This document shows positions 31,578-35,192 of a DNA stretch of 64,000 nucleotides, in pieces; within the stretch, counting starts at the first letter, position 1; each line of letters begins with the position of its first letter. The notes beneath the pieces were generated by a model. It was not told the DNA's origin and made no database searches. It was given only the letters and a program-made list of their open reading frames with translations. The position numbers and the translations under genes were made by a program. Source of the DNA: Myxococcota bacterium (GTDB lineage: Bacteria; Myxococcota_A; Bradymonadia; UBA7976; UBA1532). The stretch spans positions 1-64,000 of the forward strand of contig JAYZEG010000024.1 in NCBI GenBank assembly GCA_036337435.1, read 5' to 3'.

Positions 31578-32231
31578 ATGGATATCGCATCTGCAATGAG
31601 TTCGGCTCGCAACGTTGGAGCGGCGACGGCTGAAGAGAGAACATCCATAGAAAAGGAAGGTTTTCTCAAGTTGCTGATCGCTCAGCTGAGTAATCAGGAT
31701 CCGATGCAGCCCCAGGACTCCGAGAAGTATGTTCAACAGTTCACCCAGTTTTCAAATCTGGAGCAGCTGATGAACTTGAATAAGGGTGTGGATCAATTAT
31801 CGATTGGTCAGCTCAGTAACAATACCCAAGAAGCAATTCGATTCGTCGGCCGAACGGTGGTGGCGAAAGGGGATAGCTTACATTGGGATGAATCAGGGAT
31901 TGCGCCAGTTAAGTACAGTGTTCCGCAGGATGCAGAGAGTGCTGTTGCAACGATTTACGACGCCACTGGAGAGGTGGTTAGAACGGTTCCTGTCAATAGC
32001 AAAGCTGGTCTGCACCAGTTCCAATGGGATGGAACCGATGAAGATGGACGCATGCTGGAGCCAGGCGAATATTCCGTGAATGTTCAGGCCATAGATGCGG
32101 AGGAGAATGAGGTGCCGATAGATACCTATGTCCGCGGTCAGGTCGACGGCATTCGCTTTGATAATGGTTACCCAGAGTTACTCGTTGGCGGGCGCCGCCT
32201 GAGGATGAGTGACATAACAGAGGTTCATTGA
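31578..32231 (+). CDS. flgD: Hook cap protein FlgD
   Basis: 'FLKLLIAQLSNQDPMQP', 'QFSNLEQ', 'FQWDGTD..G'. Confidence 0.95.
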   Translation: MDIASAMSSARNVGAATAEERTSIEKEGFLKLLIAQLSNQDPMQPQDSEKYVQQFTQFSNLEQLMNLNKGVDQLSIGQLSNNTQEAIRFVGRTVVAKGDSLHWDESGIAPVKYSVPQDAESAVATIYDATGEVVRTVPVNSKAGLHQFQWDGTDEDGRMLEPGEYSVNVQAIDAEENEVPIDTYVRGQVDGIRFDNGYPELLVGGRRLRMSDITEVH

Positions 32232-32632
32232 TGGGCAAATACGATGTGTTCCTTAAGGGCGCTTTACATCGGAGCATCGTGGACCCGGTCAATACAGCTG
32301 AATCCTCTTCGAGCCAGGAGGTACGGGGGGGCATCAGTTTTGAGCAGATTTACGCAGCTCAGCTACCGGCGGGCAGCGTAAAACTCTCGCAAGAGGCTCA
32401 GGACTCGCTCAAACGAGCGGGGATTGAGTTGACCCCATTAGAGTTGGACCGGATGGGTCGAGCGATTGATGGATTGAGAGAGGCTGGCGGCCGTAAGGGG
32501 TTGCTGGTGACAAACAAGGTTACGGCAGTCGTTGATGTGACGGAACGTCTCATCACGGCAGCTCAGACCAGACAAGAAGCTAGGGACCAAGTCTTTTGTC
32601 ATGTCGACAGCGTGATGCTGACCGACGACTAG
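32231..32632 (+). CDS. Flagellar operon protein (TIGR02530-like)
   Basis: 'VKLSQEAQDSL..G' and 'ITA.....VF..VDS' pattern; position between flgD and flgE. Confidence 0.7.
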   Translation: MGKYDVFLKGALHRSIVDPVNTAESSSSQEVRGGISFEQIYAAQLPAGSVKLSQEAQDSLKRAGIELTPLELDRMGRAIDGLREAGGRKGLLVTNKVTAVVDVTERLITAAQTRQEARDQVFCHVDSVMLTDD

Positions 32633-32744
32633 ATTTGACGTACGAAATTCGACCAGGGAAGGGTTCGAATTTCAGCGTACTGAGTTGTCAGTACGTTAAT
32701 CGAGCGTGGAGCTTTGCCTCGCGCCATGCACAGGAGGTCTGGCT

Positions 32745-34046
32745 ATGCCAGGACTATTGGGTTCATTGTTTGTTGGCCAAGGAGGCCTGAACACCTCCGG
32801 TATTGGTATCAGTGTTATTGGTGACAATATCGCAAATTCAAATACGACGGGTTTTAAGACCGCTCGTGCGCACTTCGAAGATCTCTTAAGTGAGTTCATT
32901 GTGGGTGCTGCAGGTGCTAACCAGTTGGGTCGTGGTGTGACCCTTCAACGGATTGAGAAGAGTTTCAGCCAAGGTAGTTTTCAGAGCACGGGTGTCCCCA
33001 CGGATCTCGCTATCTCTGGTAACGGGATGTTCGTGTTGAGTGGACTGGCTTTAGGGAAATCTCAGAACGTCTACACGCGTAATGGTGCATTTAGATTTGA
33101 TGACGAAGGGTTCCTTGTCAATCAGGCAGGATATCGAGTTCAGGGTCACAATTCTTCAGAAGCCGGTGAGGTCAGCTCCATCGTAGAAGATGTTAAGATC
33201 GCGCCGGGCCGTTTGCTACAGCCCAATGCAACCGATGAAGTCATCATCAACGCCAACTTTAGACCTGATGATCCGATTTTCGCCTTCGACGTCAACAATC
33301 CTGAAGACACTGCGACCTTTAGAACATCGGTCGTCGCTTTTGATGGGTTAGGTAATCCCCATGAAATCACCGTGTATGGTAGCCGGACTGCGGCCAACGA
33401 GTGGGACATGAACGCCGTGGTTGATGGTGCTGATATCGCCGGTGGTGCTGCGGGTGTCCCAACCCTAATTCCACTGGGCACCTTATTGTTTGATCAGCAG
33501 GGACAGTTGCTCGATGAACAGATTAATAACCCCATCAACATTCCGTGGGCTGGCACAGTTCCGGGTGATGTCACCTTTGAGTTTGGTGATGCCATTAACG
33601 ATGGTGGTACAGGACGTGAGGGCACCACTCAATGGAATGAAACATCGGAAAGTGTCGCTCACTACCAAAGCCAAAATGGGTATGGCACCGGCGAACTCGA
33701 TGGGATTTCCATCGATGACCGAGGTCAAATTATTGGTGCGTTTACCAATGGTAGACAGCAGATTTTAGGCCAGGTGATTTTGGCTAAATTCGCAGACCCA
33801 ACTGGATTGGCGATGGTCGGTGGGAACAACTTTGTTGCGACAGCCGCCAGTGGTGAGGCCATCGTTGGTGAAGCGCGCGGAGGCGGGAGAGGCGCGATCG
33901 TTGCATCAACCCTCGAATTGTCGACCACTGAGCTGAGTGGTCAATTTATCGATTTGATTACCTATCAGCGCGCATTTCAGGCGAATTCCAGAACGATTCA
34001 AACAGCAGATGGCCTGTTGCAGGAGATATTCCAGATTCTAAGATAG
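32745..34046 (+). CDS. flgE: Hook protein FlgE
   Basis: ATG 32745 with AGGAGG SD; 'IGDNIANSNTTGFK', 'DLAISGNG', 'YTRNGAF', 'LELS....QF...I..QRAFQAN'. Confidence 0.95.
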   Translation: MPGLLGSLFVGQGGLNTSGIGISVIGDNIANSNTTGFKTARAHFEDLLSEFIVGAAGANQLGRGVTLQRIEKSFSQGSFQSTGVPTDLAISGNGMFVLSGLALGKSQNVYTRNGAFRFDDEGFLVNQAGYRVQGHNSSEAGEVSSIVEDVKIAPGRLLQPNATDEVIINANFRPDDPIFAFDVNNPEDTATFRTSVVAFDGLGNPHEITVYGSRTAANEWDMNAVVDGADIAGGAAGVPTLIPLGTLLFDQQGQLLDEQINNPINIPWAGTVPGDVTFEFGDAINDGGTGREGTTQWNETSESVAHYQSQNGYGTGELDGISIDDRGQIIGAFTNGRQQILGQVILAKFADPTGLAMVGGNNFVATAASGEAIVGEARGGGRGAIVASTLELSTTELSGQFIDLITYQRAFQANSRTIQTADGLLQEIFQILR

Positions 34047-34078
34047 CGACATCTCAATTTAACTAAATGACGGCATCT

Positions 34079-34563
34079 TGATCGATGTTGGGTGCATGAC
34101 CGCTCGGCGGTGGCTGGTCCAGGGAAGGACCGGTGGTTCGCAACAACTGACCACGGAAGGAAAGGTAACGGACCAGGCACGGCCAAGCGGTCGGCACCCA
34201 GCTGATCATGCTCTAGGATGGAGCATAACGAGATGACCGAAGGAGCAAACGGGTAGAAGACAAAATCAACCTCACCGAGGGGTTGAGCTTTTGACAAATG
34301 ACTCCATGAATCTAGCGACGCACTCGCATCGCTAGATCCTCGCGCATGTACCTGAGGAATACCCAGCCTCATAACAGGGTGCATGTGCAAAAAAAGAGAT
34401 GGGATAGACCCATTTCCCATCTCACAAGGCGCCAACAAGACCCATAACCGATTGGTGCTTACTCGAGTGCCCGGTAGCTACCCACTACCGGGCACTCATC
34501 CCCCTCTCTTTTTGATTGGGGTTGAAGATTGGAATTTGGTACCGCACGATTTTCTCACGTGCG
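34079..34563 (+). ncRNA. Putative highly structured non-coding RNA or UTR between flgE and fliL (multi-hairpin, ANGGA and ACCCA loop motifs); family unknown
   Basis: About 10 consecutive stems read by eye, including perfect 13-bp and two 9-bp stems. The wobble pairs are G-U on the + strand. No credible ORF. Confidence 0.6.
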
Positions 34564-34640
34564 TGTAGACGACATTTGGTTTAATCTCCCACAAAGTAGG
34601 TCAATGTCCTACGGTGGCAGAATGGAAGTTAGGTGCCTTC

Positions 34641-35192
34641 ATGGCTGAAGAGAATGAAGATCCACAGGCAGAAGAAGAGGGCGGAGAAGAGTCCGAAGGC
34701 TCTGGTGGTGGTGGTAAACTGGTCCTAATTATTGGTCTAATCAACACCATTGGACTTATCGGTTTGGCGTACATGGGCATGACTGGTGGCTTCGGCGGCG
34801 GGGGCGGTGGTCCAACGCTCAGTCCAGAGGCCATGGGAGAAAGTGCGCTTCAGGGTAAGAAAACCGTTGAAGACCGGCCCTCGGCCGCGCCCGGACCTAA
34901 AGTAGAGCTTGGTGAGTTGGTGGTTAACCTCAAGGAACCCACGGGCGATCGCTTTCTGAAAATCAAAGCCGAGCTGGAATTAGACAGCGAAGAGACGCGT
35001 GCGGAAGTTGAAGGTCGTTTGACATCGATTCGTTATGAACTCAATCTATTGCTCTCTGGGCAGCGGGTCGTCGATGTCCAGGGGCCTGATGCCATAGAAA
35101 CCCTACGTAAGGCCATGATTAGACGGGCTAATTCTCGATTGGCCAAAGGGCGGATTGTGAACGTTTGGCCCGGCGAGTGGATAGTGCAGTAA
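34641..35192 (+). CDS. fliL: Flagellar basal body-associated protein FliL
   Basis: One N-terminal TM; 'LVVNL....RFLK'; C-terminal 'EWIVQ'; upstream of fliM. Confidence 0.9.
   Translation: MAEENEDPQAEEEGGEESEGSGGGGKLVLIIGLINTIGLIGLAYMGMTGGFGGGGGGPTLSPEAMGESALQGKKTVEDRPSAAPGPKVELGELVVNLKEPTGDRFLKIKAELELDSEETRAEVEGRLTSIRYELNLLLSGQRVVDVQGPDAIETLRKAMIRRANSRLAKGRIVNVWPGEWIVQ

Follow-up and report, generated by a model that had tools for sequence, protein, structure and literature searches.

An RNA with repeated ACCCA hairpin loops downstream of flgE in an uncultured Myxococcota family, and its complementarity to flagellin and flgM start regions

Flagellar assembly is a textbook example of ordered gene expression, and to our knowledge links between its hook and filament stages at the level of RNA have been described only in a few model pathogens, in the form of the small RNAs (sRNAs) FlmE and FlaX. 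The subject of this study is a structured RNA encoded between the hook gene flgE and fliL in a Myxococcota bacterium (Myxococcota_A; Bradymonadia; UBA7976; UBA1532; GenBank assembly GCA_036337435.1). The window that was analysed comprises positions 1 to 64,000 of contig JAYZEG010000024.1, and all coordinates below refer to it. The 3′ module of the RNA is a series of four consecutive hairpins, each of which displays the word ACCCA in its loop. Cultured Myxococcota are known for gliding rather than swimming; here an RNA without an Rfam match, and apparently abundant, is found in an uncultured marine lineage of the group, in the place that FlmE occupies but with a quite different build.

FlmE (CJnc230) of Campylobacter jejuni is processed from the flgE mRNA and pairs at the ribosome-binding sites of flagellar mRNAs, including that of flgM; it links middle- to late-stage flagellar expression (PMC11187230). 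Its gene, like that of the RNA considered here, follows flgE immediately and on the same strand. FlmE is 88–98 nucleotides (nt) long with one single-stranded pairing region, whereas the homologous RNAs of this study have lengths of approximately 200–480 nt, about four identical loop seeds, an anti-Shine–Dalgarno (anti-SD) element and, in most cases, a GGA-rich domain. A flaA reporter was not a target of FlmE; for the ACCCA-loop RNA, by contrast, flagellins head the predicted targets. The lineages are unrelated, and FlmE has no Rfam or sequence match to the ACCCA-loop RNA.

FlaX of Vibrio cholerae is an sRNA of approximately 265 nt from the flaA 3′-untranslated region (UTR) that pairs with the leader of a flagellin mRNA at three sites and prevents binding of the 30S subunit (PMC11879080). 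The two RNAs have in common an origin at the 3′ end of a flagellar gene and additive, multi-site pairing to flagellin paralogues, which in the present case is in silico only. FlaX differs in deriving from flaA instead of flgE, in having sites that are unlike one another where the RNA studied here repeats one word, and in its reported dependence on ProQ; no ProQ was found in the present genome (87% complete). In the OxyS–fhlA interaction the terminator loop of OxyS takes part in a kissing complex (cited in PMC11979758), and the likeness lies in the use of short loop sequences, including a terminator loop, to pair with a start region.

None of FlmE, FlaX and OxyS is homologous to the ACCCA-loop RNA. 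Staphylococcus sRNAs such as RNAIII carry C-rich loops on several hairpins, which pair with G-rich initiation sites without Hfq; their word is UCCC, directed at the Shine–Dalgarno (SD) sequence, whereas ACCCA is complementary to UGGGU at codons 1–2 and is present in four to six copies per RNA, and there is no homology. Sponges of the CsrB/RsmZ type, and the dual-function RNA McaS, likewise present one short motif on many hairpin loops, and CsrB sequesters CsrA. The likeness to these extends to the GGA motifs in the 5′ half of the RNA and to the csrA–fliW pair in the genome, but the loop word of the 3′ module is ACCCA, not GGA.

A first-pass annotation, made from the letters of the window alone, had placed ACCCA at 34361, 34408, 34440 and 34480 in the terminal loops of four different stems. 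An exact search combined with a minimum-free-energy (MFE) fold confirmed this, each copy lying wholly inside the loop of a separate predicted hairpin (H1 to H4, Table 1). The fold of 34330–34520 has an energy of −79.6 kcal/mol (z=−7.2), and none of 200 shuffled sequences was equally stable; for the whole 567-nt spacer, z was −9.7. The annotation had also read ACCGA and ACUCG in the two preceding hairpins as variants of the motif. The letters are present, but their status as variants is an interpretation, and the loop of the 34312–34335 hairpin (H0) differs freely among relatives, reading CACCCA in the G003 lineage. No GGA was found in the loops of H1 to H4, the GGA motifs being confined to the 5′ rod, and the 3′ module is thus not a CsrA site. 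Downstream of H4, a T5 run begins 12 nt past the stem in this genome; a consensus terminator scan made no call, the distance between the stem and the T run being too great.

Table 1. Features of the flgE–fliL spacer RNA. Folds are MFE predictions for the module or the whole spacer, as indicated.
Feature	Position	Strand	Sequence	Remarks
Structured spacer RNA	34047–34515	+		Directly 3′ of flgE, same strand
5′ GGA-rich rod	34087–34202	+		Context, outside the 3′ module (spacer fold)
Conserved core	34116–34176	+	GGUCCA.GGA.GG.CC...CGGACCAG	Kept across most genera of the family
Anti-SD element	34301–34314	+	ACUCCAUGAAUCUA	Single-stranded; overlaps the start of H0
H0 hairpin	34312–34335	+	CUAGCGACGCACUCGCAUCGCUAG	Precedes the module (spacer fold)
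H1, two-tier hairpin	34342–34388	+		Outer stem 34342–34353/34377–34388, inner stem 34354–34357/34367–34370 (MFE)
H1 loop	34358–34366	+	AAUACCCAG	ACCCA 34361–34365
H2, 9-bp hairpin	34396–34423	+	UAGACCCAUU (loop)	Loop 34405–34414, ACCCA 34408–34412 (MFE)
H3, 9-bp hairpin	34427–34460	+	CAAGACCCAUAACCGA (loop)	16-nt loop 34436–34451, ACCCA 34440–34444 (MFE)
H4, 13-bp terminator-like hairpin	34465–34497	+	CUACCCA (loop)	7-nt loop 34478–34484, ACCCA 34480–34484 (MFE)
U-rich tail after H4	34498–34515	+	AUCCCCCUCUCUUUUUGA	

Homologues were sought by several routes. A BLAST search of 61 related genomes found the spacer in eight other genomes of the same family. Exact-pattern scans with the 5′ core, which gave many chance matches in metagenomes and genomes, added named genome records as well as six true homologues among 24 metagenome loci; the homologue-bearing named records are Bradymonadia, Myxococcales or Nannocystaceae metagenome-assembled genomes. 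All homologues from these two sources have the RNA in the flgE–fliL interval, with two to five copies of ACCCA after the core. One exact core match, in a Pseudomonas putida record (L017), was discarded as chance, its inner sequence being unrelated and no ACCCA following it.

The flgE loci of 13 flagellated family members that had given no BLAST match were also collected. In one (G002, 81% complete) the flgE locus is missing. All of the remaining 12 show two to six copies of ACCCA in the first 750 nt downstream of flgE, mostly in hairpin loops, among them that of a terminal hairpin, which reads CGACCCA. The RNA was found after flgE in 20 of the 20 flagellated family genomes with an assembled flgE locus. 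Three of the 12 further homologues (G004, G009 and G015) keep the ACCCA hairpins while lacking the GGUCCA..GGA core, and the 3′ module is therefore more widespread than the 5′ rod.

Beyond the family the picture is different. A covariance model of the module (R1), run against 113 genomes of the class, matched only members of this family, apart from one borderline partial hit, and the gap that follows flgE contained no ACCCA in any of 11 flagellated genomes, which represent four other families. fliL begins 5–76 nt past flgE in the sister family (f2), which has no RNA in this spacer.

The first-pass annotation had proposed that free variation of the loops among orthologues would speak against a function for them. 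It is apparent from the homologues that the reverse holds, the loops keeping ACCCA while the stems covary. An alignment of 12 sequences (A4) has 89.4% of its cells paired, as compared with 43–48% when the partners are slid, and 29 of its 45 pairs have changed on both sides; none of 500 shuffles reached any of the five measures, all of which are to be read with the bias of a model-guided alignment that was fitted to the structure of the model and leans towards it. Both-side changes affect 11 of the 12 outer-stem and three of the four inner-stem pairs of H1, eight of the nine pairs of H2, and six of the 13 pairs of H4, in which 100% of the cells are paired. The stem of H3 hardly varies in the low-GC clade, and nine of nine sequences have a G–U pair in it. 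This pair, together with several U–G pairs in H1, is compatible with the + strand only. A reading of the minus strand was rejected, since a terminator-like site at 34413–34399 needs an A run that is missing in relatives.

The loops are conserved in a different manner from the stems. The 26 homologous 3′ domains (6,035 nt) contain 97 copies of ACCCA, 53 of which lie fully inside MFE hairpin loops, whereas nine permuted 5-mers occur 3–17 times each in the same domains (76 in all) with six copies in loops. The H1 loop retains UACCCA in most homologues. A heuristic scan, which mis-picked a few rows, found a strong terminal hairpin with ACCC in its loop in 17 of the 26, followed within 18 nt by at least four T residues in 15 and by at least three in 22, in several cases directly after the stem; the word is thus kept in a terminator-like loop although termination needs no loop sequence. 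The size of the ACCCA loops varies from 7 to 16 nt, the position of the motif within them also varies, and in some homologues the word stands in a single-stranded linker. In G003 and L030, ACCCA has been lost from H3 (ACCCU) and H4 (GGCC loop) but is present in H0 and in one hairpin further upstream, so that the losses are offset and four ACCCA loops are again found. The ACCCA-loop module is real and strongly conserved.

Clustering of ACCCA by itself is weak evidence. Sixteen clusters of four or more copies within 160 nt exist in the genome, as against approximately 12 by a Poisson estimate. The other 15 all lie within open frames of at least 183 codons and have zero to three copies in loops; the module is the only non-coding cluster, with four of four copies in loops. 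A search for further ACCCA loops that might form a regulon across the genome found none: loop placement was not enriched over the genome (25.7 per 1000 occurrences, versus 24.7–29.9 for nine permuted words), and neither an sRNA with repeated UGGGU nor a further ACCCA-loop RNA was present among the clusters of ACCCA or UGGGU in the genome, the 15 others being coding.

The first-pass annotation had left two uses for the loops, namely a sponge for a protein or pairing with UGGGU-containing targets. The second gains support from the present analysis, with targets in trans and not with the internal partners that had been suggested. [G/U]ACCCA is complementary to UGGGU[C/A]. Of the seven flagellin genes in the genome, five start AUGGGU (encoding MGL, MGM or MGI) and the other two AUGGGC and AUGGGA, and UGGGU occupies positions +2 to +6 of those five and of flgM. 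GACCCA fits AUG-GGU-CUN, and the UACCCA of H1 fits AUG-GGU-AUN. The flgM gene, which stands behind a sigma-28-like promoter, starts AUGGGUG, and a hairpin loop in its 5′ UTR contains UGGGUAG, the exact 7-nt complement of the H4 loop; the energy of this duplex is −11.2 kcal/mol, as compared with −10.3 at the first percentile, and the combined rank of flgM is 1043 of 10,254. Only 87 of the 10,254 candidate start regions of the genome begin with ATGGGT; the 29 starts listed for the window, which belong mostly to the early flagellar operon, include no such case.

Longer complementarity accompanies the short seed. The anti-SD element is a perfect complement, over 12–13 nt, of the flagellin SD hairpin GAUUCAUGGAG at −21 to −9 of the genome's own flagellin mRNAs, and the 11-mer GATTCATGGAG occurs three times in 4.38 Mb, at two flagellin SD sites and as the antisense of the element itself. 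The sequence CTCCATGA of this element recurs in seven of the 12 further homologues, and the high-GC genomes G021 and G011 have a variant, (C)UCCUUGAAG, that matches CUUCAAGGAG SD sites. In H2, AUAGACCCAUUU is perfectly complementary to one flagellin start region over 12 nt, and in H3, AAGACCCAUAA is complementary to a flagellin start region over 11 nt; together the two loops are complementary to 8–12 nt around the start codon and the apex of an upstream UTR hairpin. The predicted contacts on the flagellin leaders of G000 and G001 are accordingly the SD hairpin (12–13 nt), the start codon (8–12 nt) and the UTR apex (8 nt). Perfect matches to flagellin start or SD regions amount to 8–13 nt in G000 and G001, 10–11 nt in G021 and 10 nt in G011.

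A scan of duplex energies over the 10,254 start regions placed flagellins at ranks 3, 10 and 11 with the anti-SD element, at 4, 15 and 63 with the H2 loop, and at 2 and 3 in the combined ranking. UGGGU is enriched in the flagellin 5′ UTRs of G000 (11 copies versus 3.6 expected) and G001 (8 versus 2.0), a level reached by none of 200 shuffles in either case. The flagellin UTR hairpin is itself conserved, with the apex GAUGGGUC(U) in two genera that have different stems. Promoter-like sites suggest that these UTRs are long, at 190–340 nt (own contigs C28, at 41325, and C30, at 60812 on the minus strand; L086, L088, L075 and L078). The apex word GAUGGGUC recurs at the flagellin start codon and could form a small hairpin hiding the AUG. 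A pattern for sigma-28 promoters, by which the late regulon was to be delimited, twice proved too loose, and only the promoters of flgM and of three flagellins were clear.

It is possible, and we put it forward tentatively as our preferred interpretation, that the ACCCA loops are repeated antisense seeds that act in trans on U(+2)GGGU(+6) at the start of late flagellar mRNAs. The four hairpins would form the effector portion of an RNA that is stable, specific to the family and derived from the 3′ side of flgE; the RNA would end at H4, and its 5′ end would arise either by read-through from the hook-gene transcript or from a start of its own. Each loop would show the same short single-stranded seed, [G/U]ACCCA, for pairing with U(+2)GGGU(+6)[C/A] on flagellin (AUG-GGU-CUN and AUG-GGU-AUN) and flgM mRNAs, while the single-stranded element upstream, 34301–34314, would pair with the flagellin SD hairpin. 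We infer that such pairing takes place in the cell and that its sign is repressive, a duplex over the start codon and ribosome-binding site blocking initiation. Repression of this kind would couple the synthesis of filament protein to expression of the hook gene, and its multivalent layout would suit a large set of paralogous flagellins. Neither Hfq nor ProQ (PF04352) was found in the genome at its stated completeness, which fits display on pre-formed loops better than chaperone-assisted pairing. If pairing takes place, the RNA would be a case of convergent evolution of flgE-linked riboregulation, and a natural multivalent, chaperone-free display of seeds aimed at a family of paralogues through their shared first two codons.

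Several observations weigh against pairing with the flagellin and flgM starts. The universal seed has only 5–6 nt, the longer matches being specific to a genus, and the counts of 8–9-mer matches equal those of an antisense control. The enrichment of UGGGU in flagellin UTRs is significant in the low-GC genus only, 36, 25 and 82 of 200 shuffles reaching the observed count in G011, G021 and G025, respectively. Genome-specific co-variation of RNA and target was not seen, cross-genome matches in the high-GC members being as long as those within a genome. The first rank in the combined scan went to an internal site of an unrelated frame. With the anti-SD element placed 5′ to the anti-start loops, no single continuous duplex with a start region can form, and the contacts must be separate.

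The sister family provides the most direct comparison. In f2 (flagellins of G028, G029 and G030, loci L159–L175) there is no RNA between flgE and fliL, yet the flagellins start UUCAAGGAGUGAAUC-AUGGGU, and the flagellar loci examined in one genome, 80 kb in all, contained no ACCCA cluster. Codon 2 is GGT in 13 of the 17 f2 flagellins, and in the high-GC G030 in three of four, as compared with five of 40 Gly codons in gene bodies. The corresponding preference in the high-GC flagellins of the family under study (GGT in 14 of 20 Gly codons at position 2, versus 37 of 253 in gene bodies) had been considered as a trace of pairing and was dropped, since f2 shows the same bias without the RNA. AUGGGU thus predates the RNA, and the bias cannot be credited to it. 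A search of f2 for H4-like hairpins with the pattern CCGG..ACCCA..CCGG gave counts at or near those of the reversed-pattern control and was uninformative.

The same comparison bears on the chief alternative, in which the loops are repeated sites for a protein that binds single-stranded RNA (for example one of KH or cold-shock type with a C-rich word), the RNA serving as a sponge or assembly platform: AUGGGU starts in a family without the RNA imply that the two need not be partners. One strict 5-mer on about four different stems, its copy number kept while positions turn over, is the pattern of a protein sponge; the flanks of ACCCA are more variable than a long antisense site would permit; and the same RNA has a GGA-rich domain of the CsrA-sponge type in a genome with csrA–fliW. 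No candidate protein was found, however, and the sole family-specific neighbour tested, 32231–32632, is flg_new-like. The genome offers no ACCCA-loop regulon, the variation in loop size and motif position argues against a reader of fixed loop shape, and the complementarity to flagellin and flgM starts, like the anti-SD element, would be left unexplained. We regard a protein platform as rather unlikely, albeit a serious contender; if a protein does bind ACCCA, it would point to a new RNA-binding regulator of motility. A role purely in cis appears improbable to us. By this account the stack of hairpins and a partial terminator shield the 3′ end of flgE, lower read-through into fliL–fliM and beyond, and so set the ratio of hook to motor, with no recognition role for ACCCA. 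The position of the module inside a long flagellar operon, directly after a highly needed hook gene, would suit such a role, as would the strong stem of H4 with a U-rich tail in most homologues and, as a weak hint, the shallower depth of fliL contigs than of flgE contigs in four RNA libraries. Stability and termination need no loop sequence, though, and ACCCA is kept in loops across genera of about 46% to 73% G+C while the stems change; operons of the sister family, moreover, manage without a spacer RNA.

That last point counts equally against a processive antitermination element that would act in cis, modifying RNA polymerase so that the long flagellar operon is finished. The EAR element of the Bacillus eps operon offers a likeness, in that a structured and conserved spacer RNA lies here inside an operon of at least 25 kb and is followed by a terminator-like hairpin. 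No Rfam family matches, the sister family transcribes the same operon without the RNA, and neither the repeated 5-mer nor the match to flagellin starts would be given a reason; this account is considered very improbable. Just as little weight is given to an internal switch, in which the ACCCA loops would pair with UGGGU at 34089–34093 or GGGUAG at 34251–34256 and open the GGA rod, as had been suggested in the first-pass annotation. A fifth ACCCA, at 34196–34200, does pair with UGGGU 34089–34093 in the MFE fold of the whole spacer, as noted there, and GUUGGGUG is invariant in the three genomes of the genus. The fifth ACCCA is found at the equivalent place (offset 19 after the core) in only two of 14 homologues, however, G001 reading GCUCA, and other genera close the rod with unrelated sequence. 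GGGUAG at 34251–34256 is not conserved even within the genus. As the three family members that keep the ACCCA hairpins without the rod core also indicate, opening of the rod is not the general job of the loops.

The rod may nevertheless have a part of its own. The 5′ domain, 34087–34260, folds as a long rod with the GGA-rich motifs CAGGGAAGGACC, CACGGAAGGAAAGG, CUAGGAUGGAG and GAAGGAGC, and from its sequence the 5′ core looks like a set of CsrA sites. The csrA and fliW genes follow flgK–flgL on another contig of the genome, and flagellin leaders have CsrA-type hairpins at the SD site (AUUCA-UGGAG-UGAAU). A flagellar checkpoint RNA of two modules is conceivable, although we hold it to be doubtful: produced along with the hook gene, it would capture CsrA on the GGA hairpins of its 5′ rod, and its ACCCA loops with the anti-SD element would hold the starts of all flagellin paralogues and of flgM by multivalent kissing contacts. 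Transcription at the hook stage would then be coupled to translation at the filament stage beside the protein-based FliW–CsrA switch, and CsrA would perhaps be handed over to the tethered mRNAs.

Contigs over the RNA were present in four metatranscriptome libraries from four studies. Their mean word depth was 27 in X3, 115–146 in X8 (a value that rests on a 30-nt conserved-core match from relatives), 49 in X12 and 79–105 in X17, as against 7–19 over flgE and 2.7–6.5 over fliL, but contig depth cannot rank regions, DNA is possibly present in RNA libraries, and contigs give neither ends nor strand. The depths hint weakly at a stable RNA and at lowered read-through. Contig ends shared by two of the libraries, at 34330 and 34481, were rejected as ends of the RNA, because they fall in hairpins, where assembly graphs break.

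Scans of the whole window with Rfam 15 at gathering thresholds gave one tRNA only and no family in the spacer. With permissive filters, the best scores in the range 33950–34700 were 13–15 bits against thresholds of 38–45, and the model of the MS2 operator scored 13.5 against a threshold of 40. No account of an ACCCA-loop RNA was met in the literature, in searches that were not aimed at excluding one. Whichever use the loops have, a model of the RNA family can be built and entered in RNA databases.

The flgE gene occupies 32706–34046 on the + strand (Pfam FlgE_D2, Flg_bb_rod and Flg_bbr_C), and the ACCCA-hairpin module is the 3′ end of the structured RNA in the flgE–fliL spacer. Both genes are members of one long + strand flagellar operon, in which fliK and flgD adjoin flgE upstream and fliL is followed by fliM, fliN, fliO, fliP, fliQ, fliR, flhB, flhA, flhF, a MinD/ParA-type ATPase gene (in the flhG position) and a sigma-factor gene. 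The probable start of fliL is the ATG at 34641 (AUGGCUGAAGAG, aligned with G001 and G003) and not the GTG at 34614 given by the open reading frame (ORF) finder; with this start, the spacer extends from 34047 to 34640. A small ORF between flgD and flgE, 32231–32632 on the + strand, matches TIGR02530 (flg_new) weakly (E=2.3e–10, below the curated cut-off). It adjoins flgE in G021 and G025 (two of two), and the same query found it in none of three genomes of f2, where the distance between flgD and flgE is approximately 140 nt. Its product was considered as an RNA-binding partner and was rejected as flg_new-like.

Two features of the RNA itself may be added. The 5′ arm of H2 (GAGAUGGGA; GUGAUGGGU in L039) resembles the flagellin start word and is paired to CCCAUC; H2 looks like an internal copy of the proposed duplex between RNA and target, and the loop copy could swap with the 3′ arm. 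Near the 5′ end of the spacer, TAAA (34064–34067), 14 nt, TCGATGT (34082–34088) and then UGGGUG resemble the genome's own sigma-28-like flagellin and flgM promoters (AAGTNN-N12-CCGATGT, then GGGUG). The −10-like part of this candidate is only partly conserved in G001 and G003; judged by this resemblance, transcription of the spacer RNA might begin separately, at a late-class start near 34064–34093. The sequencing runs that contain the stretch are seawater or marine metagenomes.

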